Assembly (NCBI GenBank): GCA_038150265.1
Contig: JAYOTF010000009.1
Location: forward strand, 1-57,802
Source of the DNA: Deltaproteobacteria bacterium
GTDB taxonomy: Bacteria > SAR324 > NAC60-12
DNA length: 57,802 nt
Direction: 5' to 3'
Part shown: positions 1 through 57,802 of the stretch, in pieces
Numbering within the stretch: position 1 is the first letter of the stretch
How the letters are laid out: each line of letters opens with the position of its first letter
The notes under the pieces: model-generated
What the model was told of the DNA's origin: nothing
The model's input: only the letters and a program-made list of their open reading frames with translations
Database searches by the model: none
Position numbers and translations under genes: made by a program

Positions 1-707
1 CATGCCCGCATCCGGGTGCGGTTCGGAAAGCCCCCGGGGAGCAGGTATTCGGTAGAGTCCAGAGCCTGCTCCACCTCCTTCTTCTTGCGCTTCATCTTGA
101 TGCTCTCCCCGTCTCGCTTGAGCGAGCGGAGCCGGAACACGTAACGGATCTGCAACTGCTCCTGAAGGATCCGGAGCTGCAGCAGCACCTCATCCAGTTG
201 CGGGTACTCACGGGAATCCGGAATCACCAGTTTGACCTCGGTCCATCCGTCCAGGTGCTTGTGGTACTTCTCCAGAAACTTGAACTGCGTGGTGAAGGTC
301 TGGAGGAAGCTCTCGAGGATGGGGTGCAGCGAGACCTGGAGGTCAATGCGCCCTCCGGTTTCCTGAGCCTGGTCGTTCCCGAAGACGAGATGCAGGGCGC
401 CGGCCTTGTCGGTAATCGGACTCTCGGAAGGCAGGTGGAGTTCCCAGTCACTCGTGTGCGTCGCCTGTGGCTCAAGTGCCGGGACGTCCAGCTCCACGCG
501 TTCCAGGACCTGCCAGTCCACGGCGCCGGCCTTCAGGTCCTTCTTGAGGGCATAGGCCAGAATGACCTGAGCCACTTGCGGCGGAGTCGGGTCGGTACCG
601 TTGTTTGCAATGCGGAGGGTCCCGCGGATGAAATCTCCCTGGTTCCACTCTTCCGTTTCAGTGACAAGCTGATACTCCAGGGGACGCTGGAAAGATACGC
701 TACGCAT
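1..707 (-). CDS. Spo0M-like (arrestin-fold) protein, runs off the window edge
   Basis: Manual translation from ATG at 707: MRSVSFQRPLEYQLVTETEEWNQGDFIRGTLRI...WELHLPSESPITDK...LQVSLHPILESFLQ...PDSREYPQLDEVLLQLR. Open to the window edge; motifs resemble the Spo0M family. Not in the ORF track. Confidence 0.55.
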   Translation of the reverse strand, partial: MRSVSFQRPLEYQLVTETEEWNQGDFIRGTLRIANNGTDPTPPQVAQVILAYALKKDLKAGAVDWQVLERVELDVPALEPQATHTSDWELHLPSESPITDKAGALHLVFGNDQAQETGGRIDLQVSLHPILESFLQTFTTQFKFLEKYHKHLDGWTEVKLVIPDSREYPQLDEVLLQLRILQEQLQIRYVFRLRSLKRDGESIKMKRKKKEVEQALDSTEYLLPGGFPNRTRMRA

Positions 708-747
708 GAAGATTTTTTCGGGATGAAGGGATGAGGCCGTTGGCGAT

Positions 748-1404
748 TCAGAGAGTGGACAGGTGGGCCACAATCTGTTGATGGATCGCATCAAGAGATG
801 CTTCCGCGTTGAGGGACACGAAGCGTTCAGGCTGTGCGTTGGCCAGCACCTGGTAGCCACTCCGGACCCGTTCGAAGAAGTCGAGGGACTCCTGATCCAG
901 TCGGTCGGGAGTGCCCCCACGCTGCTGAAGGCGCTTGAGGCTTTGCTGGGGAGGCAGGTCCAACCAGAAGGTCCGGTCGGGAACATGAGGGGCAATGTGA
1001 TGGGCCACCACCGAATCCAGGGCCGAGAGGTCGAGGCCTCTGCCAAATCCCTGATAGGCAACGGAGGAATCATGAAACCGGTCACACAGCACCCAAGTCC
1101 CCGCCTGAAGCGCAGGCAGTATCTTTTCTTGCAGGTGCTGTACCCGATCGGCAAGGTAGAGCAGCAATTCGCTGACCTCACCCAGGGCGTGGTGTTCCGG
1201 ACTTAGCAGGACCGCTCGGATCTGCTGCCCAATCAGGGTGCCGCCGGGCTCTTTGGTCACCAGAACGGTGTGGCCCTGCGACTCGAGCCACTGCTGGGCC
1301 AGCTGCAGTTGCGTGGTTTTGCCGGACCCGTCGATTCCCTCAAAGGTCAGGAAGCGTCCAGCTCGCGGAAGGGGAGGCGCTGGTGGCGGCCAGGCGGCGG
1401 TCAC
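748..1404 (-). CDS. tmk: thymidylate kinase
   Basis: FLTFEGIDGSGKTT P-loop, TKEPGGT, LCDRF, AYQG motifs. Confidence 0.96.
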   Translation of the reverse strand: MTAAWPPPAPPLPRAGRFLTFEGIDGSGKTTQLQLAQQWLESQGHTVLVTKEPGGTLIGQQIRAVLLSPEHHALGEVSELLLYLADRVQHLQEKILPALQAGTWVLCDRFHDSSVAYQGFGRGLDLSALDSVVAHHIAPHVPDRTFWLDLPPQQSLKRLQQRGGTPDRLDQESLDFFERVRSGYQVLANAQPERFVSLNAEASLDAIHQQIVAHLSTL

Positions 1405-1769
1405 GAAGGCTTCTTGTCGTAAACCGCGTAAACCTTTTCCTTGATCTCCTGGTGCGCCTTCTGGGCGTCTCGGATGATGGTGTTGCAGGCTTCCTTGAAC
1501 TCGTGCACCTCATCCGGATCCGGATTGTTTTCCTTGAACTCCTTGAACCGAGAGTAGATCTGCGCCACGTCCTGCTTGAGGTTCTTCTTGAGGACGATGG
1601 CAATGGGAAGCTTGCTCTTCAGCTCTTCCTTGCTGCTGGCGCTCAGGAGTTGGTCCTTGGCCACGTGAAAAGACTCTGTCTTCTTCGACATGGACTCGAA
1701 GTGCTCCTTAGCCTCCTCGGGGACGGGAGCCTGAGGAATGGAGGAAAATTTTCCTGTCGTTTCTGACAT
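1401..1769 (-). CDS. hypothetical helical protein (122 aa)
   Basis: ATG-started ORF whose stop overlaps the tmk start (GTGA); coding-like composition. Confidence 0.75.
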   Translation of the reverse strand: MSETTGKFSSIPQAPVPEEAKEHFESMSKKTESFHVAKDQLLSASSKEELKSKLPIAIVLKKNLKQDVAQIYSRFKEFKENNPDPDEVHEFKEACNTIIRDAQKAHQEIKEKVYAVYDKKPS

Positions 1770-1961
1770 AATGGCTTTGTCTAAAAGAATCCCTTGAGAA
1801 AGCCGGAAGGGCCGAGGAAAAGCGGAAGGCCTGTGCCTTCCAGAACGCCTGAAGTCCTCCGGAGTTCATTGCTTGAGAAGTCCAATCAAGTACTGTAAAT
1901 TGACAGACAAACACAAGATTTTCTCGCGTGCTCAATCCTGCACACTTTACGCCAAGCCCCA

Positions 1962-2294
1962 ATGTTGAAGCTAAAACGCACCAAACCCGAAAAAATCCTT
2001 CTTGCTGACGACGTGTACGTGCTCTGGCGCGATGGCCATGAGAGCCGTTACACCTTTCTTGACCTCCGGGATGCGTGTCCCTGTGCCGAGTGTGTGGACG
2101 AGATGACCGGAGAAAAACGACTTGAGCGCTCCAGCATTCCCCCGGAGATTCACCCGCTTGGAAGTGAATACGTGGGGAACTACGCGTTGCGCATTCACTG
2201 GAGCGATGGGCACAGCACCGGGCTCTACAACTTCAAAACGCTCCGTGGCATGGATGACACCGCGGACGACTCTTCTGAGAAAGGTTCAGCATGA
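1962..2294 (+). CDS. DUF971 / GBBH-like N-terminal domain protein
   Basis: [29 protein letters not shown] motifs. Confidence 0.88.
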
Positions 2295-2752
2295 AGCACC
2301 TGGAAGGCGACTTGGTCGCCACCGACCTGCGCGTGGCCCTCGTGGTGGCTCGCTTCAACGAGTTCATCTGCGAGCGATTGCTCGAGGGCGCCCTGGATGC
2401 CTTCACGCGGCATGGTGGCTCGCGCGACCATGTCACGGTTGCCCATGTGCCCGGAGCGTTTGAGCTGCCTCTGGCGGCCAAGAAACTGGCGGCCTCCGGA
2501 AATTATGACGCCGTCGTGTGCCTCGGCGCCGTGATCCGTGGAGCCACCTCGCATTACGACTACGTCTGCGGCAGCGCGGCCTCCGGAATTGCCTCGGCCA
2601 GCCTGGAGACCGGGGTGCCCGTCATCTTTGGCGTGCTCACCACAGACACCATTGAGCAGGCCATTGAGCGCGCTGGCACCAAAGCCGGGAACCAGGGCCG
2701 CAACGCCGTGGTCACGGGCATTGAGATGGCCCGACTCCTCAAGCAGATCTAG
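2291..2752 (+). CDS. ribH: 6,7-dimethyl-8-ribityllumazine synthase
   Basis: [42 protein letters not shown]. Confidence 0.97.
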
Positions 2753-4270: not shown

Positions 4271-4678
4271 TCAGTTGGCAGGAGGCGGTTCTGCTGCAGG
4301 CTCCGGAGGCAGGTCGCCTTCCTGAGGAGGAGCAGGCTCTGGAGCAGGAGGCGGGGCTTCCGGATTGAGGACAATTTCCACCTTCCCGTTCCGGACCTTG
4401 CAGAGAGCCTCACCGGTTCCGGAGGACGAGGTAAAGCCTCGGTAGACGTCCAGGCCTTCCGGAGTCTCAATGACTGCAGTGGTCAGCACACTGAACTTGA
4501 GTGACTCGCCCACGGCTTCTTCAATCGCAGGGTCGCAGCTCCGGAACGGCTCGCTCTTCGCGTCCGGGTTGTTGGTGCCCAGCAGGTGGGAGCGTCCGGT
4601 GTTTTGCAAACCGAGCCACACCAGCACCAGGCCAGCGACCACGGCTCCAGCGATCAGGATCTTGCGTTGTCCGTCCAT
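4271..4678 (-). CDS. hypothetical membrane-anchored protein with Pro-rich tail
   Basis: Likely start MDGQRKILIAG (ATG 4678); N-terminal TM, two Cys, PPPAPEPAPP tail. Confidence 0.6.
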   Translation of the reverse strand: MDGQRKILIAGAVVAGLVLVWLGLQNTGRSHLLGTNNPDAKSEPFRSCDPAIEEAVGESLKFSVLTTAVIETPEGLDVYRGFTSSSGTGEALCKVRNGKVEIVLNPEAPPPAPEPAPPQEGDLPPEPAAEPPPAN

Positions 4679-30686: not shown

Positions 30687-30694
30687 GGCGGGAA

Positions 30695-34303: not shown

Positions 34304-35092
34304 ATGCTTGATTACTTTATGCCCCAAGCGTCGACCTTCAGTGGAGACGTGGACAACGTGTTCCTGATGATCGTGTGGGTCGTGGGCTTCTGGTTTGTCC
34401 TGACCCTGGCGACGCTGGCGTACTTCATGATCCGCTACCGGCACCGTGAAGGCGTGAAGGCCTCGTACGTAACGGGTGAGAAGCACTCGGAAAACAAGTG
34501 GATCCATTATCCGCACTACGTCATCATTCTCTGTGACGTCGTGCTGATTGCAGGCTCCATTATGGTCTGGGTGAACGTGAAGCAGACCCTGCCTCCGAAG
34601 GATGACACCATCCGGGTGATTGGTCAGCAGTGGTCGTGGGCCTTCATCCACTCGGGTCCGGACGGTCAGTTGGACACGGAAGATGACATTTCCACCGTGA
34701 ACGACCTGCACGTGGAAGTGAACAAGGTGTATCACTTTGAGCTGCAGTCTCGGGACGTGTTGCACAACTTCTCGGTTCCGGCCTTCCGCCTGAAGCAGGA
34801 CATGATTCCGGGTCGAACGATCACCGGCTGGTTTGAAGCCACCCAGGTGGGCACGTACGATGTTCAGTGTGCTGAAATGTGCGGACACGGACACGGCATC
34901 ATGGGGGGCTCCATCACTGTTCATACCCCAGAAGACTACCAACGCACCATGGAAGCCATCAAGAATGGCACCTATGAGAGTGATTACTTGAAGCGACTCG
35001 AGAATGATCCGATTCCGATCGCTGCCAAGCGTCCCCAAGTGAGCCAGAACACCGTGAATGCGGGTGAGGAAAATCTGGTCAGCAGCAACTAA
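34304..35092 (+). CDS. coxB: cytochrome c oxidase subunit II
   Basis: QWSW, DVLHNF, CuA motif CAEMCGHGHGIM; no fused cytochrome c. Confidence 0.95.
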   Translation: MLDYFMPQASTFSGDVDNVFLMIVWVVGFWFVLTLATLAYFMIRYRHREGVKASYVTGEKHSENKWIHYPHYVIILCDVVLIAGSIMVWVNVKQTLPPKDDTIRVIGQQWSWAFIHSGPDGQLDTEDDISTVNDLHVEVNKVYHFELQSRDVLHNFSVPAFRLKQDMIPGRTITGWFEATQVGTYDVQCAEMCGHGHGIMGGSITVHTPEDYQRTMEAIKNGTYESDYLKRLENDPIPIAAKRPQVSQNTVNAGEENLVSSN

Positions 35093-35129
35093 CGCTTTCC
35101 CTATCATCTGAGATCCAAAAGGAGGATTG

Positions 35130-36848
35130 ATGAGTCAAACCGCAACGGTACAGCATCAGGAGGCCCACGCTCATGATGATCATCATCATGATCAGAGCTT
35201 CCTGAGCAAGTACATCTTCTCGGTGGATCACAAAGTGATCGGCCTGCAGTACATGTTCCTGGGGTTGCTGATGGCAGCCCTGGGGGGCTTCTTTGCCTAC
35301 GCCTTCCGGATGCAGCTCGCCTTTCCGGGAGAAGCCGTCCCTGGTTTCGGAGTCGTGAGCCCGGCAGAATACAACATGATGATCACCAACCACGGGACCA
35401 TCATGATCTTCTGGGTGGCGATGCCGGTTCTGATTGCCGCCTTCGGTAACTACCTGATCCCGCTGATGATCGGTTGTGACGACATGGCCTTCCCGCGGCT
35501 GAATCGCCTGTCGATTCAGGTGTTCTTCGTCAGCATCCTCGTGCTGCTGCTTTCCTACTTCGTGGAAGGGGGGGGATTCGGCGGAGCCTGGACGTCGTAC
35601 CCGCCGCTTTCTTCAGTGGCCGAGTACAGCCTCACCAACTGGGGCTCGTCTCTTTGGCTCCTTGCCGTGACGCTGGAGATCGTCGCCTTCCTGATTGGCG
35701 GAGTGAACTTCCTGACCACGACCATGAACTCCCGGGCACCGGGCATGAAGATGACCGACGTCCCGATCCTCGTGTGGACGATCAACATCGCCGTCATCAT
35801 GTTCATGGGCTCGGTGGGACCGCTGGTGGCCGGTGCCGTGATGCTGTTCATGGATCAGCGCCTGGGCACCACCTTCTTCCTGCCGTCGGCCGGGGGTGAC
35901 CCCGTCCTGTGGCAGCACCTGTTCTGGTTCTTCGGACACCCGGAAGTGTACGTCGTGCTCTTCCCGGCCATGGGCGTGGTGGCTGAGATCATCACCACCT
36001 TTGCCCGCAAGAAGCTGTTCGGCTACCGCGCGATCCTCTACACGATCATTGCAACCGGAGCCCTCTCCTTCATCGTCTGGGCGCACCACCAGTTCATCGC
36101 GGGCATTGACCCCCGGATGGCAAACATCTTCACCGTGACCACGGTTCTCATTTCGGTCCCCATTGCGGAGATGCTGTTCTGCTACATTGCGACCCTCTAC
36201 GGAGGATCCATCCGTTATGAGCTGCCGATGCTCTGGGCTGTGGCCTTCCTGGTGACCTTCCTGGTTGGAGGGGTAACGGGCATTCCGCTGGGTTCGAGTG
36301 GAACCGACCTGTTCTTCCACGATACCTACTTCGTGATTGCCCACTTCCACTACACCTTCTTCCCGATTGCGATCATTGCAATGTTCGCAGCGCTCTACTT
36401 CTGGTACCCAAAGATGTTTGGGCGCCACATGAACAAGACGCTGGGACTGATCCACTTCTGGGGAACCGTGATCTTCTTCAACGGGCTCTTCATGCCGCTC
36501 TTCCTCCTGGGAATGGCGGGCCAGCACCGACGGATCTACAACTACCAGCACTTCCCTGACCTGGCCTCTGCCGACCTTCAGGGCATCCGGATCTTCGCGA
36601 CGACGAGTCTGGTGCTGCTGCTGCTCTTCCAGATTCCGTTTGTCTGGAACTTCTTCTCCAGCATGTTTACTGGAGAGAAGGCCGAGGCGAACCCCTGGAA
36701 GGCCAACACGCTGGAATGGGCGGCGCCGTCGCCTCCTCCGCACGGGAACTTCAAGGAACTCCCGGTGGTTTACCGTGGACCGTACGAGTACAGCGTCCCC
36801 GGAAACCGTGAAGACTTCTGGCCCCAACACATGCCGGATCGCAACTGA
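35130..36848 (+). CDS. coxA: cytochrome c oxidase subunit I (A1-type GHPEVY)
   Basis: NHGTIM, WFFGHPEVY, WAHH, HDT, HFHY, RR. Confidence 0.96.
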   Translation: MSQTATVQHQEAHAHDDHHHDQSFLSKYIFSVDHKVIGLQYMFLGLLMAALGGFFAYAFRMQLAFPGEAVPGFGVVSPAEYNMMITNHGTIMIFWVAMPVLIAAFGNYLIPLMIGCDDMAFPRLNRLSIQVFFVSILVLLLSYFVEGGGFGGAWTSYPPLSSVAEYSLTNWGSSLWLLAVTLEIVAFLIGGVNFLTTTMNSRAPGMKMTDVPILVWTINIAVIMFMGSVGPLVAGAVMLFMDQRLGTTFFLPSAGGDPVLWQHLFWFFGHPEVYVVLFPAMGVVAEIITTFARKKLFGYRAILYTIIATGALSFIVWAHHQFIAGIDPRMANIFTVTTVLISVPIAEMLFCYIATLYGGSIRYELPMLWAVAFLVTFLVGGVTGIPLGSSGTDLFFHDTYFVIAHFHYTFFPIAIIAMFAALYFWYPKMFGRHMNKTLGLIHFWGTVIFFNGLFMPLFLLGMAGQHRRIYNYQHFPDLASADLQGIRIFATTSLVLLLLFQIPFVWNFFSSMFTGEKAEANPWKANTLEWAAPSPPPHGNFKELPVVYRGPYEYSVPGNREDFWPQHMPDRN

Positions 36849-36855
36849 GCAAGTG

Positions 36856-36875
36856 GCCCCCAGCTCGCTGGGGGC
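36856..36875. promoter_or_regulatory. intra-operon stem-loop after coxA
   Basis: gcccccagc-tc-gctgggggc; no U tract, possibly an mRNA stability element. Confidence 0.45.
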
Positions 36876-36914
36876 GTTGCCAGTCCCGCTTAATTTCTTT
36901 GAGAGAGTCGTTTC

Positions 36915-37496
36915 ATGTCAATGCAAGGACCCATTGCCACCGGCCGCTGTGCCACCGGCATCCCCTCTGCGCGCCTCGCAGTCTGGTGGTTGCTGGCCTC
37001 TGAGGTGTTCATCTTTGGCGGTCTGATTGCCGTCTTCCTGCTCTACAAGTTCAACGGTGCCCCCGGAATGGAGGACGCCTCCCTCACCGTCACCTGGGCA
37101 GGGGCCTTGAACACCTTTGTCCTGCTGACATCGAGTCTGACGATTGTGCTGGCCCATGATGCGGCTGAGCATGGAGATGGCCACAAGGCCTTCAAGTTCA
37201 CGTGGATCACCATCGCGGGTGGCCTGATCTTCATGTGTGTGAAGGCTTTTGAGTACTACAGCAAGATCTCCCATGGGGTGGGCTTCACGACCAACATCTT
37301 CTGGTCCTTCTACTTCACCATGACTGGCCTGCACGCGCTACACGTCATGGGCGGGATGATCATCATGGGGCTCGTGTCCTTTGACGTTCGCAAGGGACGG
37401 AACCTGCAGCGCACCGAGCTGGTGGGGCTGTACTGGCACTTTGTGGACATCGTCTGGATCTTCCTCTTCCCCATGCTTTACATCGCTAACTTCTGA
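36915..37496 (+). CDS. cytochrome c oxidase subunit III family protein (copy 1)
   Basis: LASEVFIFG, TGLHALHV, YWHFVDIVW. Confidence 0.92.
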   Translation: MSMQGPIATGRCATGIPSARLAVWWLLASEVFIFGGLIAVFLLYKFNGAPGMEDASLTVTWAGALNTFVLLTSSLTIVLAHDAAEHGDGHKAFKFTWITIAGGLIFMCVKAFEYYSKISHGVGFTTNIFWSFYFTMTGLHALHVMGGMIIMGLVSFDVRKGRNLQRTELVGLYWHFVDIVWIFLFPMLYIANF

Positions 37497-37504
37497 GGCG
37501 CCTT

Positions 37505-37921
37505 ATGTCAGAGTCTGCACACGCACATCCTAATTACGTCAAGATTTGGGCGATTCTGCTCGGCCTGCTCATCGTCAGCCTGATTGGTCCGGAGATTGGG
37601 CATGCGTTTGACGCGCCCTGGATCATCGTGGTCACTGCATTCGGAATTGCAGTCGTGAAGGCCTACATGGTCTGCGCCGATTTCATGCATTTACGTTTTG
37701 AAAAGAAAATTGTCTGGTTCCTGCTGCTGGCGTCCTTGATTGTGATTAGTGCAGTATTCTTCTTTGGGGTGGCTTCGGACGTCATCAAGACGACGGGGCA
37801 GAACTGGGAAGACTGCGTTGCCAATAAAACCTGCACGGTTGAGCAGCGAATCATTGTGACGCCTCACACATACGCTGAAGTTTCTGCTGCTCACGACGCA
37901 CAGACTCATAGCGGCCAATGA
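37505..37921 (+). CDS. cytochrome c oxidase subunit IV family protein with C-terminal extension
   Basis: YVKIW, VKAYMVCADFMHLRFE. Confidence 0.85.
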   Translation: MSESAHAHPNYVKIWAILLGLLIVSLIGPEIGHAFDAPWIIVVTAFGIAVVKAYMVCADFMHLRFEKKIVWFLLLASLIVISAVFFFGVASDVIKTTGQNWEDCVANKTCTVEQRIIVTPHTYAEVSAAHDAQTHSGQ

Positions 37922-38538
37922 ACCTTTCCCTCTTAGTCGGGCTTGTTGTGGAGCCGTCCCGTGACGGGGCTGCTCCCGCTCGCCAGGCTCCCCTGGTGCC
38001 CAGCTCCGTGTTCGCCGTCCTGGCGTTCATTGTGACGGAGCTGATGCTCTTTGCCTCCCTGATCAGCGCCTACATCATCATCCGCTCCGGCATTGACGAG
38101 TGGCCTCCCTGGGGACAGCCTCGTCTGCCGGTTTGGAGTACCGCCTTCAACTCGCTGGTGCTGCTGGGGAGTGGGGTGCTGATGTTTCTGGCAGGACGGC
38201 ACCTGAAGACCGACCGCAGTCAGGTCTACCGCCTGATGGGCATGAGCATTGCGGCGGGTGTGTTCTTTCTGGTTTTTCAGGGATTTGAGTGGGCGCAGCT
38301 GCTGGCCTACGGCTTGACCGTGACCTCGAGCAATTACGGGGGCATGTTCTACCTGATCATTGGCATGCATGGCCTGCACGTCCTCACCGCTGTGATGGCG
38401 ATGGTCTATACCTGGATGCGCCTGGCGCCCAATGCCAAGAAACCCCTGACCGATGACGGTTTCCGGGCCATGGAAGTCTTCTGGTACTTCGTGGTGGGAA
38501 TCTGGCCGGTCCTTTATGTGCTGGTGTACCTCGCATGA
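37918..38538 (+). CDS. cytochrome c oxidase subunit III family protein (copy 2)
   Basis: TELMLFASL, WPP, GMHGLHV, FWYFVVGIW. Confidence 0.88.
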   Translation: MNLSLLVGLVVEPSRDGAAPARQAPLVPSSVFAVLAFIVTELMLFASLISAYIIIRSGIDEWPPWGQPRLPVWSTAFNSLVLLGSGVLMFLAGRHLKTDRSQVYRLMGMSIAAGVFFLVFQGFEWAQLLAYGLTVTSSNYGGMFYLIIGMHGLHVLTAVMAMVYTWMRLAPNAKKPLTDDGFRAMEVFWYFVVGIWPVLYVLVYLA

Positions 38539-38747
38539 CCAAAGCCACACTTTTTCTGCTGACCGCGCTGGCGGTTCTCCTTCCTCAGTCCGTTTGGGCC
38601 TGTGCCGTCTGCTTTTCGGGGGCAGGAGGATCGCTGAACGCGTACTACATTGCCACCGCGCTGATGATGTTCATCCCGATCTTCTTGATTGGTGGATTCG
38701 TCTACTGGCTGGTGCGGAAGTCCCGTCAGGCAGGCTCCGAGCTCTGA
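38535..38747 (+). CDS. small membrane protein with CxxC (ACAVCF)
   Basis: Signal-like N-terminus, CAVC, TM; ATGA-coupled to the upstream gene. Confidence 0.75.
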   Translation: MTKATLFLLTALAVLLPQSVWACAVCFSGAGGSLNAYYIATALMMFIPIFLIGGFVYWLVRKSRQAGSEL

Positions 38748-38751
38748 GCGG

Positions 38752-39606
38752 CTACTGAGTGATGATCTTGGTGCCGATGCCCTGATCGGTAAACAGCTCA
38801 GCCAGAACCGAATGCGGGTCTGTTCCGTTGATGATCTGAGCGGACTGGACCCCATTCCGGACACAGTACAGCAAGGCCTCAACCTTTGGGGCCATCCCTC
38901 CTCGAATGACTCCCTCTTCCATGAGCCGCTCCGTTTGATCAACGGTGAGTTCGGACTGCAGCTCGTTCTCCTTGAGGATGCCGTCCACATCCGTCATGAA
39001 GATGATGCGGAAGGCCTTGAGCGCAACGGCAATTCGAGACGCCACCGTGTCGGCGTTGATGTTGTAGGTCGTGCCATCCTTGCCCATGCCAATTGGGGAA
39101 ACCACCGGAAGGAAGCCTCGCCCGAGCAGAACCTCCAGCAGCTCCGGATTCGTCTGCACCACGTCCCCGACGTACCCAAGATCCTGACCTGAGGGAGTGA
39201 TCTTCTTCCGAGCATCAATGAGGTGCCCGTCCTTTCCACTCAGTCCAACCGCCTTGCCACCAAACGTGGTCAGGTTGGCGATGATCTCCTTGTTGATGTT
39301 TCCGGAAAGGACCATCTCAGCCACCCGGAGGTTGTCGGCACTGGTCACCCGCAGGCCATCCACAAACTCCACCTCCTGCCCCATCTGCTGCATCGCCCGA
39401 GAGACCTCAGGCCCTCCTCCATGCACCACCACCGGGCGCATGCCGAGGGACTGCAGCAGCACCACGTCCTGCGCAAAGCTCTTCTTGAGTTCAGGGTCAA
39501 TCATGGCAGCGCCACCGTATTTGATGACCACCACCTTTTGGTGGAACCGCTGGATGTAAGGAAGCGCCTCCAGGAGAAGCGCTTTCTTTTCGCTGATGGT
39601 TTGCAC
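38752..39606 (-). CDS. argB: acetylglutamate kinase
   Basis: LEALPYI, VIKYGG, VVHGGGP, YNINAD, GGMAPK; start placed at GTG 39606. Confidence 0.96.
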   Translation of the reverse strand: MQTISEKKALLLEALPYIQRFHQKVVVIKYGGAAMIDPELKKSFAQDVVLLQSLGMRPVVVHGGGPEVSRAMQQMGQEVEFVDGLRVTSADNLRVAEMVLSGNINKEIIANLTTFGGKAVGLSGKDGHLIDARKKITPSGQDLGYVGDVVQTNPELLEVLLGRGFLPVVSPIGMGKDGTTYNINADTVASRIAVALKAFRIIFMTDVDGILKENELQSELTVDQTERLMEEGVIRGGMAPKVEALLYCVRNGVQSAQIINGTDPHSVLAELFTDQGIGTKIITQ

Positions 39607-47486: not shown

Positions 47487-47525
47487 TTCCTTGCCTCCTG
47501 GGCCCCTCCTTCCAGGTTCCGGAAC

Positions 47526-50500
47526 TCAGCCGCTGATGTGGAGGCTGTGCCGGAGCAATTCCTCAAAATCCGAGTGCTGCAGGCGGTCGAGGTCCTGCGG
47601 ATCGATGTAAAAGGTATTCATCACCTGGTGTCCGGTGGTGGTGATGAGCGACTGCCGAACCGGAACATTCACGGTTTCAAAGGCGTGGGCCATCTTGAAG
47701 TACACCATCGGTGCATCTTCCACTGTCACCTTGACGCGAAGGTAGCTCGCCGGGCGCCGCAGGAAGCGTCCGGACGGAGCCGCCTGCTCCGGACCCTGCT
47801 CTTCAACGAGGTAGCCCTTCTCGTCATCATCAAGGTACTCCACCTGAACCCGGCTGTTGTACATGAATTCGTGGGTGGGCAGGCGCAGCGGTGGTGGTGA
47901 ATCTCGGAGGATGGACGATTCAATGTCCCGTGGGAAGATCATTTCGCCACTGGCGCGCCGGGAGACCTCGAAGAAGTAGCAGTAGGCCGCGCTTCCGTCA
48001 TGAAAGCGGACCCGGTTCATCTTGGCCGAGTCGACGTTCAGGTTGAACTTGTTGATGGCATAAGCGGCACGGCTGTGCGGGGAGTCCTCGAGGCGGATGT
48101 AGACGAGCAAGCCGGTGATCCGGCCTCGTGCGTTGGTGAGCACGTTGGCCAACACGGGGCGGTCAATGTGCTGAAAAATGGACAGGTTCTGGGCCAGCAC
48201 ATCCGGAGGCGCACTGAGCAGGAAGCGGTTGGGGAACGCGGTGAAGAACCAGTTGATCATCGTGTTGAACGACTCCGTCAGCGTCATGATGGAGCTGTTG
48301 CTCAGCGTCTGACGGATCATCCGGATCATCCGCTCCGTGTGTTCATCAATGCCCTTGGCATCAAGTGACCCCACCTTCAGCGCCCGCCACATTCGCTGCA
48401 GCTCAGCCTCGGAGTTCCGGATGCGTTCGCGTTCCTTGGGGTGCGTGCGTTCCAGAGGCTCAAACAGCTCCTGCTCCAGGTCGTTCCGGAGGCTCCGTTT
48501 GATGAGCAGGTCGATGCGGGTATCAAACTCCAGGTCGCTCTTCTTGTTGTCGAGGTACGAGTGAATGAAATCGAGCGACTCCTCAAGGGTTCCGGAGGTC
48601 CGCATTTCGGAAAAGACCCGGTAGGTTTCCTCAAAGAAGTTCCGGAGGTGCCGGGTGTCGCGGGCATTGGCGTCACTGACAGCGCTGTAGTCAGAGACGT
48701 TGACCAGGAAGAGCAGAATGACGTTGACGAGGTTCCGGTCGGCAATCTCAAAGAAGTTCTGGAGCGCCTGGTCAAAGTACGCGGAGGTCTTGCTGAGCTG
48801 CACCACGGTCATGTGGTGGGCAATCAGCAGCGACACCAACCGAAACAGCTCCGGGTCCTGATAGCCGATGCGTTCCAGCGCATGAACGGCCATGAGGGTT
48901 CCGGAAATCTGGTGCCGGGTGGTTGGGTCGATCTTTCCCACATCATGAAACAGCATCCCCCACTTGAGGGCGAGGAGGTGCTGTGGCTTGAGGTAGTGGT
49001 ACAACTCCGGGTAGTTCTGCTTGAGCAGCTTCAGCTCCTCCTGGCTCCGCTCCACGGCATTGAGGGAGTGGATGCAGACGGGGTGCTGATGGTACGAGAG
49101 GTTCCGGAGCAGGAAGCGCATCTGGTTGCACTCCGGGATGTACCGGCCGATGAGGGTGTCGGGCAGGTTGGAGCTGCTGATCGGGTCACTGATCTCGAAC
49201 ATCACCCGCAACGCGTTGGCCGTGTGCCGGGTCAGCATCAATTCCGTAAACTTGGCGGGTAGCTCCTGGGCATGGGCCTGGATGCGTTCCGGAGTCAGGG
49301 TCGGAATCAGCTCTGCCAGCTCATCCTTGAGCTCCACAGAAAGGTCGTATCCGGACTGCCCAATGTAGATGAACAGCTCCAGCAGCACGAGGGGGGTGCT
49401 GAAGATGAGTGCGAGCGGCACCTGAGGCAGCCCCTCCAGCGCATGAATTTCAACAATCCGGCGCTTGCGCAGGTGCACCACCAGCTGGAAATCCGAGAAG
49501 GTCCGGACAACGGTCCGGTCCATCAGCTTCCGGAGCATCATCCGGGAGAGGGAGCGGATGTTGTCCACCATCTGCAGGCGGTAGCGGTCAAACTCGTCGA
49601 CATTCTGAAACCGCTGACGCTTGAGCAGGTAGAGGCGCTCGAGGCTGTCGTTGACCACATTGAATTCGAGGTTCCGGTCCACACACCCGCTGGCGCGTGC
49701 CTCTTCATCATAATAGGCCTGCGCCGCGCCGCTGAAGTTCCGGAGGTCGTAGAAGAACTCAAGGGCCTGGCACAGCTTGTACCCCTGCCGAGGCGAGAGG
49801 ATGCGCTTCTGGATCAGCAAAGCCAGCAGGTCGGCCGTCTGGCTCGGAAACACGCCATAGGTGGCCGCAGCAATCCAGAGCGGAATCTGCAGGGTCCGGA
49901 GCCCACCAAAGTCTTCCTTGATGTCCATCTCGTTGAGGTCGGGCTGGTGACTCTTCTGGTACTCGTCGAGCTTGTTGAGCACATAGGGCTCGTACGGAAG
50001 GATGTGGAAGAACCGGCGCTTGAGGGCCTCTGCGAGGGTGTTGCTGCCAAGCAGGACCCGGCTTTCCAGAATGGACGGAATGGTGTGAACGCTGTTGGGC
50101 TCGCTGAAGCGGGAGAGGTCCTCGTCAATCTCGAAGTACTGGTGGGCGGTTTCGATGCCGGACTCGCGCAGGAGGTACTCCATCCGCATGATGAGCTGCT
50201 TGCAGGTCTCAATCTCTCCTGCATTGAGCGATTGCGTGTCCACGCAGTAGCCGAGGTCCCGGTCGGAGGCAAAGCTGAGTTCGGCGCGTCCGTATCCTCC
50301 ACGGGCAAAGATGACCATGTGTCCGAGCAGAAACTCCTGATTCAGGCTGCACTGTTCCAGCTGCGGCAGGGCTTCCTGCAACTCCTGCAGCCGGACCTGC
50401 AGCTGCTCGACCTCCCGGAGGTGATCGTCGTGGATGCGCTGGTAGTACTTGAGCATCTGCCGGGCATCCTGGGCCTGCGAGTGCCGGTGGGTTTCGAGCT

Positions 50501-50939
50501 CCTGCTTGAGGATCCCGCACTTCTCTTGCTTCTCCGGCAGGATGCGGCGTTTGTAGTCCTGCTCCTTCCGGAGCTGCTCCACAAGGTTTTCCCGAATGGC
50601 CGGAAGGTCTTCCAGGCTGTACTCAAAGGCGATGCTGAGAATGGCATCAAGCAGGTGGGTGTTCCGCGCCAGGATCTGGAAGGAGTTCTGGACCGTCAGG
50701 TTGGCCTGAACGGCCGCCTGGTACTCGTGCTGGTAGTACGCGGCAACGGTCTGGGCAAACGCACGCTCGCGCAACTCGAGGTGCTCAAGCGCCGAGACGG
50801 AGGCTTCTTGAATCTGAGCCTGCTGGAGCAACTCACGGAGGCTGTCTTGGTGACGGTTGCGGGCGTCTTCATCTTGAAGGAGGCGGAACTCCGACAGAAA
50901 GGGATAGTTTTCTGCAGAAATCAGGAGCGGGCTGTTCAT
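47526..50939 (-). CDS. GlnD-like [protein-PII] uridylyltransferase (NTase + HD + degenerate ACT), enlarged
   Basis: ARGGYGRAELSFASDRDL, DIKEDFGGLR, HPVCIHS, LFHDVGK. Confidence 0.82.
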   Translation of the reverse strand: MNSPLLISAENYPFLSEFRLLQDEDARNRHQDSLRELLQQAQIQEASVSALEHLELRERAFAQTVAAYYQHEYQAAVQANLTVQNSFQILARNTHLLDAILSIAFEYSLEDLPAIRENLVEQLRKEQDYKRRILPEKQEKCGILKQELETHRHSQAQDARQMLKYYQRIHDDHLREVEQLQVRLQELQEALPQLEQCSLNQEFLLGHMVIFARGGYGRAELSFASDRDLGYCVDTQSLNAGEIETCKQLIMRMEYLLRESGIETAHQYFEIDEDLSRFSEPNSVHTIPSILESRVLLGSNTLAEALKRRFFHILPYEPYVLNKLDEYQKSHQPDLNEMDIKEDFGGLRTLQIPLWIAAATYGVFPSQTADLLALLIQKRILSPRQGYKLCQALEFFYDLRNFSGAAQAYYDEEARASGCVDRNLEFNVVNDSLERLYLLKRQRFQNVDEFDRYRLQMVDNIRSLSRMMLRKLMDRTVVRTFSDFQLVVHLRKRRIVEIHALEGLPQVPLALIFSTPLVLLELFIYIGQSGYDLSVELKDELAELIPTLTPERIQAHAQELPAKFTELMLTRHTANALRVMFEISDPISSSNLPDTLIGRYIPECNQMRFLLRNLSYHQHPVCIHSLNAVERSQEELKLLKQNYPELYHYLKPQHLLALKWGMLFHDVGKIDPTTRHQISGTLMAVHALERIGYQDPELFRLVSLLIAHHMTVVQLSKTSAYFDQALQNFFEIADRNLVNVILLFLVNVSDYSAVSDANARDTRHLRNFFEETYRVFSEMRTSGTLEESLDFIHSYLDNKKSDLEFDTRIDLLIKRSLRNDLEQELFEPLERTHPKERERIRNSEAELQRMWRALKVGSLDAKGIDEHTERMIRMIRQTLSNSSIMTLTESFNTMINWFFTAFPNRFLLSAPPDVLAQNLSIFQHIDRPVLANVLTNARGRITGLLVYIRLEDSPHSRAAYAINKFNLNVDSAKMNRVRFHDGSAAYCYFFEVSRRASGEMIFPRDIESSILRDSPPPLRLPTHEFMYNSRVQVEYLDDDEKGYLVEEQGPEQAAPSGRFLRRPASYLRVKVTVEDAPMVYFKMAHAFETVNVPVRQSLITTTGHQVMNTFYIDPQDLDRLQHSDFEELLRHSLHISG

Positions 50940-51179
50940 GAGGAGCTGACGAATGAGGGTGACAACCGGCCCAGCATGGTGGCCTGAAGCCGGGAAGAAA
51001 TTGGGACTGTCCGCGGATCCGGAACCGAGCCATGCGGCGTCTCATCAGCACGCCAGGGCGTCGGCCCAGCGGTCCGGAGGTTCAGGGGCGGAAGGGGGCC
51101 TCAAACGGTCACTTTTAACACGTATGAGCCACGCAGCAAGCCTTCCGTCGAGAAACCCTGCTGCGGTGGGGCGCACCGA

Positions 51180-56024: not shown

Positions 56025-56077
56025 AGGGGGAAGGCGCCAGTGGGCGCAAACTCAACCGAGTATTATTCCACTGAACT

Positions 56078-56099
56078 CGGGGACGGTCAAGCGTCCCCG
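56078..56099. terminator. stem-loop downstream of pyk
   Basis: cggggacg-gtcaag-cgtccccg. Confidence 0.5.
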
Positions 56100-56109
56100 C
56101 AGAGGCGGT

Positions 56110-57513
56110 TCAGGGAAGGTGCCGGATCTGGAGCGCGTCGATGCGTCCGGAGCCCGCGAGGACGTCGGAAATCACCACGACCTTCTCTCCGGACTGGAAG
56201 CCCTGGCGCTCCTTGAGGACCGAGAAGGCGGTCTGGAGCGTCTTTTCCGGATCATCGCTGAAGTTGATGCGGAAGGAGCGGACCGACCGGTTGAGCAGCA
56301 GGGTCCGGCGCGCCTGGCTGACGTTGGTGAAGGCGTAGATGAAGCTCTTGGTGGGACGGCAGTTGCTGACGTAGTCCGCCATCACGCCGCGGCGGGTGAT
56401 GACGACAATTCCACGGACCCCCAGAGACTCCGCGAGCTGGACGGCTGAGGTGGAGAGCTGCTGCTTGTCGCTGTTCGACCGCAGGTTTTCGACAAACCGC
56501 AGGCCCGGCTTCAGCTCGACGGTCTGGGCAATGTTGACCAGCTGATCGATGCAGCGCAGCGGGTACTTGCCCACCGTTGTCTCGCCAGAGAGCATGACCG
56601 CGTCCACCTCTTCGTAAATGGCGTTGGCGACGTCGGTCACTTCCGCCCGGGTGGGAATGGGGTTGTCGATCATCGACTCCAGCAGGTGGGTGGCGACAAT
56701 GACGCGGCGCCCTGCTTCGGCACACTTCCGGACAATCTCCCGCTGCACCGTGGGCACGGTGTGGTTCGGGATCTCCACGCCCAGGTCCCCTCGAGCGACC
56801 ATGATGCCGTCCACTTCCTCAATGATCTCATCCAGATTCGAGACCCCTTCCTGGTCTTCAATCTTGGCAATGATCTTGACCTTCCCGACCTTGTCTCCCA
56901 TCAGCTCCTTCAGCTGCCGGACGTCATTGGCCTCCCGGACAAAGGACAGGGCGATGAAATCCACATCGTGCTCCAGCCCAAAGAGGATGTCGCGGCGGTC
57001 CTTGCTCGTGATGGCAGGGAGGTTGACCCGCACTCCCGGGAGGTTGACGTGCCGTTTGCTCTTGAGGACCCCTCCGTCCAGCACCCGGCACTTCATCTCG
57101 CGGTCCTGCTTTTCGAGCACCTCCAGGTTGATGAGGCCGTTGTCCACGGTGATCTTGTCCCCCGGGTTGACCGTCCGGATCAGGTCATCGTAATCGACAT
57201 GAATGGAGGTCTGCTCCACGTCGCTCTCTCCGCGGACGTTGATGGTGATGACCGTGCCTTCCCGCAGGTCCAGGTCTTCCGCCAGGTTCCCGGTGCGGAT
57301 CTCCGGCCCCTGTGTGTCCAGCAGCACGGCAATGGGCGTGCGGATCTTCTTGTTGAGGCTCTTGATGCGCTGGATGACCTTCCCGTGCCACTCATGATCG
57401 CCGTGAGACATGTTCAGCCGCGCGATGTGCATGCCGGCTCCGGACATGTTTTGCAGCATCTCGTGGGATTCGGTGGCTGGACCGATGGTGCAGATGATTT
57501 TGGTGCGGATCAT
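56110..57513 (-). CDS. pyk: pyruvate kinase
   Basis: RTKIICTIGPA, RLNMSHG, DTQGPEIR, MVARGDLG, MLSGET. Confidence 0.97.
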   Translation of the reverse strand: MIRTKIICTIGPATESHEMLQNMSGAGMHIARLNMSHGDHEWHGKVIQRIKSLNKKIRTPIAVLLDTQGPEIRTGNLAEDLDLREGTVITINVRGESDVEQTSIHVDYDDLIRTVNPGDKITVDNGLINLEVLEKQDREMKCRVLDGGVLKSKRHVNLPGVRVNLPAITSKDRRDILFGLEHDVDFIALSFVREANDVRQLKELMGDKVGKVKIIAKIEDQEGVSNLDEIIEEVDGIMVARGDLGVEIPNHTVPTVQREIVRKCAEAGRRVIVATHLLESMIDNPIPTRAEVTDVANAIYEEVDAVMLSGETTVGKYPLRCIDQLVNIAQTVELKPGLRFVENLRSNSDKQQLSTSAVQLAESLGVRGIVVITRRGVMADYVSNCRPTKSFIYAFTNVSQARRTLLLNRSVRSFRINFSDDPEKTLQTAFSVLKERQGFQSGEKVVVISDVLAGSGRIDALQIRHLP

Positions 57514-57611
57514 GGGGAACGCCTGAATTGAGGGAGAAGACACAAAAAACGCTTACACTACTGAATTTCTCGAAGAAGCGAAAGTCACATTCCAGAAAAT
57601 CAGCCTTCTTT

Positions 57612-57802
57612 TTACGCGTCTCGAAGCTGTCGGACGAGGCGGATGTGGTCCGGAGTGGTGTGGGCCCCCAGGGCGATCCAGGCGACGCCCAGCGACAGGA
57701 GTCCCATCACCGCTTGCTGAAATGCATCGGAAGGCGCCGACACGTCCGGAAGCTCATCCAGTTCCACCCCCACCACGCCCACGGTTTCCACAAGCGTTGC
57801 GA
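57612..57802 (-). CDS. C-terminal fragment of a CDS, possibly homocysteine S-methyltransferase-like
   Basis: Manual translation ...PSDAFQQAVMGLLSLGVAWIALGAHTTPDHIRLVRQLRDA*; 5' part lies outside the window. Confidence 0.4.
   Translation of the reverse strand, partial: ATLVETVGVVGVELDELPDVSAPSDAFQQAVMGLLSLGVAWIALGAHTTPDHIRLVRQLRDA

Follow-up and report, generated by a model that had tools for sequence, protein, structure and literature searches.

What keeps the palindromic hexamer TCCGGA so frequent in this DNA, and does anything read it? The window, meaning the whole analysed stretch of 57,802 nucleotides, comes from the 3.39-Mb genome of an uncultured SAR324-phylum bacterium (G000) and contains 201 copies (3.5 per kb), within genes of both strands and in intergenic DNA. 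Shuffles preserving dinucleotides gave 21.0 ± 4.7 copies (largest 33; 0 of 100 reached 201). The earlier note on this DNA had proposed a HIP-like (highly iterated palindrome) signature from counts made by eye. Its 24 copies in bases 1-5000 and 20 in 47500-51100 proved exact; ACCGGT, which it had seen about twice in 1-5000, occurs there exactly two times, at 1077 and 4412.

Annotated genes of the window include ribH, an acyl-CoA ligase, mpl, dut, trmFO, gatB, ccmCE, cox genes, argB, ruvB, pyrB, rlmN and pyk, and the local features are collected in Table 1. The tandem pair reported by the earlier note is present, and 14 pairs lie at distance 6 genome-wide. The two GCC-TCC-GGA sites it described in ribH have the identical context GCGGCCTCCGGAA at frame offset 0, and both use the minor codon GGA in a gene where GGC is, as it had said, the dominant glycine codon (GGC 9, GGA 4, GGG 2, GGT 1). 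The sparsest stretch has sites at 34657, 35305, 36586, 37588, 38856 and 39143 and underlies CoxB, CtaD and two CtaE-like genes; the 5-kb window C9:35000 holds 6 copies against a genome mean of 14.5.

Table 1. TCCGGA features and associated genes in the window.
Feature	Coordinates	Strand	Details
Whole window	1..57802		201 TCCGGA copies
Direct tandem pair of TCCGGA	1513..1524		sites 1513 and 1519
ribH, lumazine synthase	2291-2749		NCBIfam match, 188.9 bits
Two in-frame GCC-TCC-GGA (Ala-Ser-Gly) sites in ribH	2495..2587	+	sites 2495 and 2582
Run of four TCCGGA	4359..4463		4359, 4390, 4418, 4458; spacings 31, 28, 40, near-integer helical turns
Three TCCGGA sites	30659..30714		30659, 30679, 30709; spacings 20 and 30
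Sparsest stretch, cytochrome oxidase genes	34657..39148		6 TCCGGA in 4.5 kb
Dense stretch	47518..51078		20 TCCGGA in 3.6 kb, mostly inside GlnD-like gene
GlnD-like gene, 1137 residues	47529-50939	minus	weak uridylyltransferase match

Across G000, TCCGGA is the commonest hexamer (9,711 copies, 2.86 per kb) and tops all 64 palindromic hexamers. Its observed/expected ratio is 8.7 under a mononucleotide model, 7.6 under Markov-1, 3.95 under Markov-2, 2.4 under Markov-3 and 1.22 under Markov-4, the last being conservative because more than half of all TCCGG are TCCGGA. At 8.67x the word is an extreme outlier: the next independent hexamer reaches about 4.1x, and among all 4,096 hexamers the 99th percentile is 3.29x. 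The enrichment is not general to CCGG-containing hexamers, since the other NCCGGN words range from 0.66 to 2.3x (TCCGGG/CCCGGA 2.26, TCCGGT 1.62, TCCGGC 1.40) and the nine lacking an outer T or A from 0.66 to 0.89x. Enrichment holds for each of the 16 flanked octamers (4.8-26.9x), which agrees with the claim that the hexamer is the unit and its flanks vary; T(-1)/A(+1) is mildly preferred (0.32 vs 0.19), and neither the conserved flanks nor the longer repeat unit of REP or mobile short repeats were found, the flanks being close to background beyond ±1.

Coding sequences of G000 contain 8,734 copies, compared to 2,104 ± 33 after within-gene shuffling of synonymous codons (4.15x), with excesses of 3.97, 3.19 and 5.10 in the three frames. 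Non-coding DNA contains 934 (2.13 per kb, vs 0.30 per kb expected, about 7x), compared to 74-207 for palindromes of the same composition. The frame-independent and intergenic occurrence first noticed in the window thus extends to the genome, and the excess survives codon-shuffle correction. Proteins permit 20,794 opportunities, 42% of which are realised, and the non-coding density is nearly equal; T occupies 68% of the third codon positions that precede CCG-GA, against 13.8% overall. Counts per 5-kb window are near-Poisson (mean 14.5, variance 16.5), density dips at start codons, and no enrichment was seen upstream of genes in G000.

We counted TCCGGA in 88 genomes of the SAR324 phylum. It is the top observed/expected hexamer in relatives of G000 with 42-60% GC, including G013 (7.7x, 56.5% GC), six marine SAR324 loci (8.4x, 41.9% GC), G002 (7.8x) and G001 (7.4x), and four genera of family f7 are enriched 2.4-8x. 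Other lineages are neutral or strongly deplete it, 20- to 100-fold in some (31 vs 1,584 and 15 vs 1,435 for the control word), and there is no excess in the sister genus g2. As a highly iterated palindrome of SAR324 bacteria, TCCGGA is real and clade-wide, and our literature search found no description of a HIP-like signature in this lineage, as the earlier note had supposed.

The copies in G000 are helically phased, at 10.45 bp. Power at 10.5 bases was 1248, against 43 ± 34 when the same opportunities were realised at random (largest 170 among 200), and normalised power was 64.7, while the 39 other hexamers of highest abundance ranged from 1.2 to 13.7. Among abundant hexamers this phasing is specific to TCCGGA, and the encoded proteins do not account for it. 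Its amplitude falls from 33% at 8-71 bases to 8% at 260-323, being detectable to about 300 bases, and spacing peaks lie near 9, 19-20, 30-31, 41-42 and 51-52. As in Dam/SeqA systems, a fixed rotational setting is favoured between neighbours. Spacings of 11-17 bases are avoided, beyond which copies follow the helical register, and 45 pairs lie at distance 9, the smallest spacing that would permit a hairpin. No A/T periodicity, as a sign of wrapped or curved DNA, was found around the sites in G000.

In a sample of G013, power at 10.45 bases was 12.4, reached by 0 of 300 nulls. Whole-genome pair counts at distances 34-38/39-43/44-48 were 97/172/100 in G000, 327/698/346 in genus g11 and 195/51/201 in genus g12, indicating the same helical face in G000 and g11 and a shifted one in g12. 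From partial samples (0.85 and 1.12 Mb), the best period in G001 was 10.9 and the phase of G013 was shifted by about 2.4 radians. Phase or period thus differs between related lineages. That the phase varies among lineages with orthologous proteins in common speaks against protein structure as its source.

A polarised three-genome comparison with codon-matched controls and G001 as outgroup revealed how the density is held. TCCGGA was created at 25 of 44 synonymous opportunities (7.7 expected, 3.2x), while 309 third positions of ancestral copies showed 80 changes compared to 123.5 expected (0.65x); synonymous sites in relatives therefore show creations fixed too often and losses too rarely. The reduced loss is visible only in the codon-matched test, and looks normal against unmatched words of the same composition (82/190 vs 1,194/2,686; 52/136 vs 921/2,217). 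Gains arise via C>G, G>A and C>T changes, both transversions and transitions, and deamination-type neighbours were the source of 0 of 83. Pairwise conservation was 633/1,418 (44.6%), compared to 31.7% for same-composition words, and codons at TCCGGA were identical in 84 cases vs 39.3 expected. Among one-letter differences between G000 and G002, 49 of 96 fall at outer letters. No near-cognate word is depleted in G000, the deamination-type neighbours included (TCTGGA/TCCAGA 2.57x, TTCGGA/TCCGAA 1.34x), and a low-power test of conservation by neighbour phase showed no gain for in-phase sites (35/81 vs 19/44 out of phase). A two-way fixation bias on the word as such holds TCCGGA at about 8x expectation, so that individual copies turn over while the density stays constant. 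Biased repair or conversion produces the same two-way bias as selection, and substitution data do not separate them.

Together, these helically spaced and renewed copies suggest a protein that reads the chromosome through this word. The explanation that we prefer, with a probability of roughly 0.4, is a clade-wide highly iterated palindrome, phased and kept by two-way bias, that serves an abundant, putative dimeric DNA-binding reader. This protein, with TCCGGA as its site, may help to organise the nucleoid or may work along the lines of SeqA on GATC. How adjacent sites are rotated relative to each other would affect its binding or cooperation, and weak selection would act on the density and spacing of sites along the chromosome, not on single copies. 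Of the alternatives in the earlier note, it is the chromosome-organising signal that the helical phasing strengthens most. TCCGGA may be methylated, but the evidence so far does not require it. Models of the histone fold, SeqA (PF03925) and MutH (PF02976) found no match in G000, although the last two both did in an E. coli control; the blank for a Bse634I-type (CCGG-family) nuclease is weak, as that model was also silent in 14 of 14 control genomes. A single conserved reader fits awkwardly with close relatives that differ in phase or period.

An unlikely alternative, after the HIP model of Elhai (2015), is a repair drive linked to methylation: TCCGGA would be marked by a methyltransferase, methyl- or site-directed repair would convert near-cognates into it, and copies would accumulate with no other purpose in their being read. 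Biased conversion is expected to yield just such a two-way fixation bias, the share of outer-letter differences resembles reports on HIP1, and cyanobacterial alternate HIPs are each paired with a matching methylase in the accessible part of PMC4390886. G000 does carry a predicted chromosomal orphan type II-like methylase, P0001 (PADLOC MTase_II, 1.8e-35), with an SPPY catalytic motif, a weak Dam-type motif match and no nuclease neighbour; its specificity is not readable from sequence, and no other Dam-type methylase was found in this genome. It is the only methylase shared within the genus, and orthologues occur in 3/3 genomes of each of g1, g12 and g4. However, P0001 does not track the enrichment, being equally present where there is none (7/9 genomes of g2, 18/19 of family f2), found in 0/19 genomes of f7 despite its four enriched genera, and cleanly deleted at the syntenic place, with no copy elsewhere, in the strongly enriched G018 and G052. 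In G018, TCCGGA numbers 4,913 against 353 for the control word, with a spacing contrast of 95 vs 35. The enriched genomes have no methylase family in common, and Vsr, MutH and C5 methylase had no match in G000. The signature of Vsr-type very-short-patch repair is lacking, with neither Vsr and C5 methylase matches in G000 nor depletion of the deamination words. Gains by transversion as well as transition and the undepleted near-cognates also speak against repair drive, which does not predict the helical phasing or the short-range exclusion. Of the orphan-methyltransferase ratchet put forward in the earlier note, the ratchet-like bias therefore stands, while the link to a methyltransferase or Vsr is not supported.

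The remaining explanations are less probable. An uptake or self-recognition word, with competence or defence machinery preferring TCCGGA-rich DNA and thereby taking up or sparing DNA of its own kind, seems distinctly improbable. A few copies per kb in genes and spacers do resemble uptake sequences, and HIP1 itself is now proposed as an uptake signal in the parts of PMC13756078 and bioRxiv 2024.09.10.611283 available to us. Certain viral contigs contain TCCGGA at 10-15x expectation, but these were chosen by a pattern containing TCCGGA itself, and the one contig tested (L275) showed no SAR324 link beyond a tRNA-like 70-base match. Six bases offer little specificity for uptake, and we know of no uptake sequence that shows phasing over 300 bases or exclusion at 11-17 bases. 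Somewhat harder still to credit is intrinsic DNA mechanics without a specific reader, in which the CG step bends or flexes and phased copies tune curvature or supercoil handling. The helical period of 10.4-10.9 bases and lineage-specific phase could reflect curvature-building versus curvature-cancelling arrangements, but just one of 16 NCCGGN words is used, the identical word serves at 42% and at 61% GC, A/T periodicity does not accompany it, and so specific a use of a complete 6-base palindrome suggests recognition by a protein. That self-complementary UCCGGA pairs in transcripts is highly improbable: the palindrome is present in mRNA whichever strand is coded, and the distance-9 pairs would allow hairpins, but the distance-9 count equals the opportunity null (39 vs 39), non-coding DNA is enriched almost equally, and a 10.45-base period is most readily a property of double-stranded DNA. 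Virtually no weight falls on the view that the word's abundance is an ordinary side effect of base composition or of codon and dicodon preferences. The low Markov-4 ratio and the commonness of TCC, GGA, CCG and CGG as codons would fit it; against it stand the excess over shuffles that keep each gene's codon usage (4.15x) and in non-coding DNA (~7x), the equal excess at 42% and 61% GC and its absence from sister genus g2, and codon usage is itself inflated by TCCGGA.

Among known systems, Dam/SeqA/MutH on GATC comes closest to showing how a short word could be read in a phase-dependent way. SeqA reads GATC genome-wide in gamma-proteobacteria, binding pairs of sites on the same helix face; we know of no 8-fold enrichment of GATC in such genomes, and G000 has no SeqA or MutH match. 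In E. coli, the classic repair ratchet of Dcm/Vsr raises CCWGG at the expense of deamination products, whereas G000 lacks a Vsr or C5 methylase match. The DUS of Neisseria and USS of Pasteurellaceae resemble TCCGGA as short words spread genome-wide, with roughly one copy per kb or more, and maintained in a drive-like manner. They differ in being non-palindromic and 9-12 bases long, and we know of no helical phasing in them. TCCGGA is recognised by restriction-modification systems of the Kpn2I/BspEI/AccIII type, and its depletion in several SAR324 lineages resembles classical restriction-site avoidance, while G000 shows an 8.7x enrichment instead.

The closest parallels are the cyanobacterial palindromes. 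In the accessible text of PMC4390886, Calothrix PCC 7103 has the alternate HIP GGCGCC together with a methylase of matching specificity; as far as that text goes, alternate HIPs and TCCGGA are alike in being one GC-rich palindromic hexamer that is an extreme outlier within one lineage, and no consistent counterpart of the companion methylase was found for TCCGGA. HIP1 (GCGATCGC) has 8 bases and is accompanied, according to the available part of PMC13756078, by two dedicated methylases, DmtA and DmtC, whereas TCCGGA has 6 bases at about 3 per kb and no methylase that tracks it. The available part of PMC5861425 reports HIP1 periodicity at 18-94 kb, in contrast to the helical repeat of 10.45 bases in TCCGGA. 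It also describes selection that appears to act on the distribution of HIP1 rather than on single copies, a point of likeness to the reading preferred here for TCCGGA. Depletion of 20- to 100-fold in some SAR324 lineages also departs from the HIP1 picture. Nevertheless, HIP1, whose function is still unresolved after decades, and TCCGGA are both hyper-abundant palindromes, found in all frames and between genes, phylum-wide with exceptions and conserved above control words, and TCCGGA displays three hallmarks of HIPs in Elhai's (2015) sense: an outlier palindrome, present in all frames and in non-coding DNA, and conserved more than its controls.

No hexamer occurs more often in the source genome G000 (3,393,712 bases in 87 contigs, 61.2% GC) than TCCGGA, with 9,711 copies (2.86 per kb). 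The window holds 201 copies, a number reached by 0 of 100 shuffles that preserve dinucleotides (21.0 ± 4.7), and the counts and examples of the earlier note were exact on recount. The ratio of observed to expected copies in the genome was 8.7 under base composition and 7.6, 3.95, 2.4 and 1.22 under Markov models of order 1 to 4, respectively, the last being conservative because more than half of the TCCGG pentamers belong to TCCGGA. The runner-up among palindromic hexamers (64 in all) was CTGCAG (3.15-fold), and ACCGGT stood at 0.66-fold. The earlier note had asked about similar enrichment of other CCGG hexamers, and none was comparable: besides TCCGGA, the 16 NCCGGN words were raised only with an outer T or A, by 1.4- to 2.3-fold. 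By our arithmetic, the half-sites predict approximately 4-fold for TCCGGA against the 8.67-fold observed, so that the combined effect of the outer T and A exceeds the product of their separate effects about 2-fold, and a general enrichment of CCGG or CCGGA was rejected on this ground. A longer motif was also rejected given the variable flanks; all 16 flanked octamers (NTCCGGAN) were enriched, by 4.8- to 26.9-fold, with a mild preference only for T at −1 and A at +1, and the hexamer is the unit, as had been claimed. The hexamer counts of G000 revealed no depletion of the one-mismatch neighbours of TCCGGA. Hexamers that contain CTAG and TA-rich palindromes were extremely rare in the same genome (CCTAGG, 38 sites, 0.03-fold; ACTAGT, 12; CATATG, 15; TCTAGA, 27), and CTACTA/TAGTAG was conspicuous under higher-order Markov models.

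We then separated coding from non-coding copies using 2,732 genes from a simple codon-model caller, for which start codons are approximate. Genes wholly contain 8,771 copies (2.97 per kb), and 934 lie wholly outside them (2.13 per kb versus 0.30 per kb from base composition), compared to just 74 to 207 copies of same-composition palindromes. Shuffling synonymous codons within genes, which leaves protein sequences and the codon usage of every gene unchanged (a usage already inflated by TCCGGA), gave 2,104 ± 33 copies versus 8,734 observed (4.15-fold), and control palindromes ranged from 0.85- to 1.57-fold under the same shuffle. The excess was 3.97-fold for TCC-GGA, 3.19-fold for xTC-CGG-A and 5.10-fold for xxT-CCG-GAx, bearing out the frame-independent and intergenic occurrence noticed by eye, and it remained under both kinds of model that had been proposed as a check (1.22- to 8.7-fold for Markov and composition models, 4.15-fold for synonymous codons). 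Forty-two percent of the opportunities, places where the encoded amino acids permit the word, are filled (8,734 of 20,794). Ser-Gly is written TCC-GGA in 2,039 of 5,951 cases versus about 8% expected from codon frequencies, and T precedes CCG-GA in 68% of cases, compared to 13.8% T at third positions overall. The excess of TCCGGA is not a coding or composition effect. Inferences from codon usage in SAR324 need to allow for the bias that the word introduces in GGA, CGG, CCG and, before Pro-Asp/Glu, T-ending codons.

Along the chromosome of G000, counts in 5-kb windows were close to Poisson (mean 14.5, variance 16.5), and TCCGGA-free islands were rejected since the poorest window has 3 sites. 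Density was 1.3 to 1.4 per kb at start codons (up to 25 bases away) and 2.0 to 3.3 per kb elsewhere; this dip, with no enrichment upstream of genes, led us to reject an association with promoters or terminators. A/T content around the sites showed the codon period and no other periodicity. TCCGGA behaves as a feature of the bulk chromosome and not as a promoter or terminator element. Other features of the window and the methylase loci of G000 are listed in the table below.

Features of the window and methylase loci in G000
Feature	Location	Remarks
Window	C9:1-57802	
Cytochrome oxidase subunit III-like gene	window 36921-37493	downstream of coxB and ctaD; 138-residue ORF between the two subunit III-like genes
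Cytochrome oxidase subunit III-like gene	window 37918-38535	
Candidate tRNA gene (probable)	window ~41660-41750	~83-base intergenic stretch; 98% identity to G001, 79-82% to several other G001/G002 contigs
P0001, methylase shared within genus g1	C51:2-1387 (L026/L107)	frame open at contig start; PADLOC type II methylase model match 1.8e-35; motif I precedes motif IV
Island L025	C45:40-6228	upstream protein of 935 residues, retron-type reverse transcriptase C-terminal (PADLOC RT_XIII, 5.2e-69); its stop overlaps the P0002 start; followed by two ORFs (311 and 546 residues) that match nothing in Pfam or PADLOC
P0002, second methylase	C45:2844-3620	258 residues; behind the reverse transcriptase

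The distances between TCCGGA sites in G000 displayed a trough at 11 to 17 bases (3 to 12 pairs per distance versus 27.8 under Poisson) and peaks near 9, 19-20, 30-31, 41-42, 51-52, 62-63, 72, 84 and 93 bases. Some of the peaks fall at distances not divisible by three, and pairs that span two reading frames therefore contribute. Spectral power of the coding sites at 10.5 bases was 1248, compared to 43 ± 34 (largest 170) in 200 nulls in which opportunities were fixed in place and realised at random with frame-specific frequencies; in the set of all opportunities the 10.5-base component was weak. Normalised power was 64.7 for TCCGGA versus 1.2 to 13.7 for the 39 other most abundant hexamers, the top ones of which overlap TCCGGA. 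The relative amplitude was 33% at 8-71 bases, 17% at 71-134, 15% at 134-197, 10% at 197-260 and 8% at 260-323, with a phase that stayed constant with distance, and the signal was gone beyond approximately 530 bases. This register with the helix points to a physical reading of double-stranded DNA and not to a mutational accident.

Pair counts over whole genomes were compared across relatives (table below); for G000 the opportunity null gave near-equal numbers at 39-43 and 44-48 bases (134 versus 126). In a 1.12-Mb sample of G013, a genome of genus g12 with 2,604 TCCGGA and 33% of opportunities realised, we found a component at 10.4 to 10.45 bases (normalised power 10.6 to 12.4, reached by 0 of 300 nulls) whose phase was shifted by approximately 2.4 radians relative to G000, together with strong deficits of pairs at 11-35 bases (59 versus 135.6) and 39-43 bases (15 versus 29.9). 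For the relative G001 (0.85-Mb sample) the period with the highest power was 10.9 bases (9.8), and a 500-kb sample of G002 was too small and gave no clear spectrum. Across these partial samples, the helical register is shared among lineages and its phase or period differs. The phase differs though the lineages share orthologous proteins, which speaks against protein-structure periodicity as its origin.

TCCGGA abundance and spacing in the SAR324 phylum (control, AGGCCT; pairs in whole genomes, g11 summed)
Lineage	TCCGGA versus control	Observed/expected (GC)	Pairs at 34-38/39-43/44-48 bases
G000			97/172/100
g1 (includes G000)	4-6x		
G001		7.4x, pieces (59.7%)	97/66/90
G002		7.8x, 100-kb sample (59.8%)	75/99/72
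g12	14-30x		195/51/201
G013 (g12)		7.7x, 1.12-Mb sample (56.5%)	
g11, 18 marine species	up to 32x; ~1.6x in three low-completeness species		327/698/346
g4	3-8x		47/80/55
g6	4.5-4.7x		
f4, one genome	357 vs 10		
f7, four genera	2.4-8x		
Six marine SAR324 loci		8.4x (41.9%)	
g2, 9 species	~1x		
Several f7, f2, f5, f6 genomes	31 vs 1,584; 25 vs 1,728; 15 vs 1,435; 133 vs 987		

The nearest relatives of the GatB protein of the window are in SAR324-cluster genomes, first one uncultured genome (93% identity) and then named SAR324 genomes (59% to 70%). TCCGGA had the top observed/expected ratio of all hexamers in every relative sampled (G013, the six marine loci, G002 and G001). When TCCGGA was counted genome-wide in 88 genomes of the phylum, with the reversed word AGGCCT as control, it proved to be either accumulated or purged, depending on the lineage. 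In practice, TCCGGA is a strong marker for binning SAR324 DNA. The depleters (G081, G083-G087, G023, G021, G026, G067 and G068) have the word reduced 4- to 100-fold relative to the control, as expected under a TCCGGA restriction system. Three of them with genomes of 1.6 to 3.0 Mb (G021, G023 and G026) have 21 to 26 PF01555 methylase matches each; a search for a cognate methylase in the most depleted genomes found no PF01555 match in G083 and G084. Within g11, GC at the locus syntenic with P0001 is 36% and 31% in the non-enriched species G041 (L377) and G050 (L378), and 44% in enriched congeners; loss of the signature may accompany genome streamlining in this genus. Outside the phylum, a 21-kb stretch of an unrelated Bdellovibrionales genome (L051) has 30 TCCGGA versus 6.3 expected (4.7-fold) and may be an independent case. 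Several IMG/VR viral contigs (L239, L254, L274, L229, L275 and L215), which were chosen by a pattern that itself contains TCCGGA, carry the word at 10 to 15 times the composition expectation. L275 genuinely derives from a phage, with genes for a small terminase, a minor capsid protein and a Tad2-like anti-Thoeris protein, and no SAR324 host link was found for it, the one contig tested; giant collagen-repeat genes may account for the count in L215.

How the word is maintained was approached through alignments with G002 and G001; contig C6 of G002 is colinear with the window (79% to 84% identity). Over 471 kb aligned between G000 and G002, 633 of 1,418 TCCGGA were conserved (44.6%), compared to 31.7% for words of the same composition and 33.1% for hexamers in general, and the 785 sites private to G000 and 453 private to G002 indicate much turnover. 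At sites where all overlapped amino acids are conserved, identical codons were kept in 84 of 193, whereas the behaviour of those codons elsewhere predicts 39.3. Changes were polarised in 111 kb of three-way alignment, with G001 as the outgroup: 30 of 403 one-mismatch ancestors gained TCCGGA (7.4%) versus 832 of 45,119 for same-composition words (1.8%; Fisher p = 3e-10), and losses appeared normal (82 of 190 versus 1,194 of 2,686; p = 0.76), a picture unchanged at positions with amino acids identical in the three genomes. Because survival of a position in all three genomes is not matched in the same-composition control, we judged that control to be confounded and substituted a codon-matched test. 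In this test, 25 of 44 synonymous third-position opportunities to create TCCGGA were taken, where the rate of each codon change at other places predicts 7.7 (3.2-fold; 12 versus 4.3 and 13 versus 3.4 in the two lineages), and 80 changes had occurred at 309 third positions within ancestral TCCGGA versus 123.5 expected (0.65-fold; 31 versus 54.9 and 49 versus 68.6). The ratio of these effects, approximately 5, fits the synonymous excess, and the substitution process that maintains TCCGGA is directly measurable. In a test of low power, no link between conservation of the sites and their helical phase was seen.

The codon changes behind the gains included CGC to CGG, GGG to GGA and several xxC to xxT; by source word, gains came from CCCGGA/TCCGGG (17 of 133), TGCGGA/TCCGCA (10 of 36) and GCCGGA/TCCGGC (3 of 41). 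The bias is two-directional and runs through transitions and transversions alike, and therefore acts on the word and not on one kind of mutation, which is what selection or word-directed biased repair would give. Neither a simple context mutation bias nor Vsr-type patch repair fits this pattern. The Vsr-like repair link suggested in the earlier note is not supported by other evidence either, with no gains in 83 cases from TCTGGA/TCCAGA or TTCGGA/TCCGAA in the three-way alignment, and with neither Vsr nor a C5 methylase (PF00145) found in G000. The search of that genome likewise returned no gamma-class N6 methylase (PF02384), MutH, SeqA or histone fold; the blank for a Bse634I-type nuclease is weak, as the model matched no control genome either.

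The same note offered an orphan methylase as one possibility, and G000 does encode two methylases with an SPPY motif. P0002 is common to G000 and G001 only, and therefore cannot explain G002 or other genera. P0001, the candidate shared within the genus, is an orphan type II-like methylase with synteny conserved across two families of the order and no nuclease neighbour; in g1 it carries a long Arg/Asp/Glu-rich N-terminal repeat (732-residue frame in G002). Its orthologues were found in 33 of the 44 genomes in family f1 and in 18 of the 19 in f2, counts that include 7 of 9 from the non-enriched genus g2, and in 0 of 19 of f7, though four f7 genera are enriched. In at least 4 g11 species P0001 is cleanly deleted, the flanking genes abutting with no methylase between; strong enrichment and phasing persist in G018 (4,913 versus 353 control, spacing 95 versus 35) and in G052, and G041 and G050 are not enriched. 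We found no other methylase family common to the enriched genomes, and the methylase matches of G018 were just two weak PF02384 hits in large open frames. The specificity of P0001 was also sought through distant plasmid homologues and their neighbours, which were uninformative (24% to 29% identity, no named nuclease nearby); PDB matches of both proteins were generic N4/N6 methylase folds only, and the Kpn2I paper holds nothing on the methylated base (PMC6237814). Judged from these sequences, a methylase link is not supported by its distribution.

From this material we infer, tentatively and with a probability of about one in three, that TCCGGA is a methylation-independent address written across the whole chromosome. 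A putative, abundant, SAR324-specific DNA-binding protein, not yet recognisable from sequence, would bind the word as a dimer and bridge or stack neighbouring sites according to their rotational setting. Synonymous and non-coding positions would have been rewritten into helically phased arrays, each genus would have a preferred phase co-evolved with its own version of the reader, and other lineages of the phylum would treat the word as a restriction target.

TCCGGA is a real, strong, clade-wide signature of the highly iterated palindrome (HIP) type, and it is new for the SAR324 phylum: a literature search, part of it loosely worded, found no paper joining SAR324 or TCCGGA with over-representation, consistent with the earlier remark that none was known in this lineage. 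To our knowledge, work on hyper-abundant palindromes has been almost confined to cyanobacteria (HIP1), and after thirty years there is still debate about what they do. Finding a second and independent case, in an ocean phylum that is abundant and uncultured, makes the question more testable. The shortness of TCCGGA yields thousands of copies per genome, and its lineages in SAR324 differ naturally in enrichment (enriched, neutral or depleted), in phase and, among species, in whether they carry the candidate methylase, contrasts that phylogenetic profiling and metagenomic methylomes could use to find the factor involved. HIP1 is the closest kind; SeqA on GATC, Vsr/Dcm on CCWGG, uptake sequences and the Kpn2I-type enzymes served as further points of comparison. 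The HIP1 literature describes selection on the distribution and not on single copies (PMC5861425), methylases of matching specificity for HIP1 and for alternate HIPs such as the hexamer GGCGCC (PMC4390886), and a proposed role in uptake (PMC13756078). The periodicity of HIP1 is given there as 18 to 94 kb (PMC5861425), whereas that of TCCGGA in SAR324 is the helical repeat. TCCGGA differs from HIP1 in word length, in density, in having no methylase that tracks it and, above all, in helical phasing with a lineage-specific phase.
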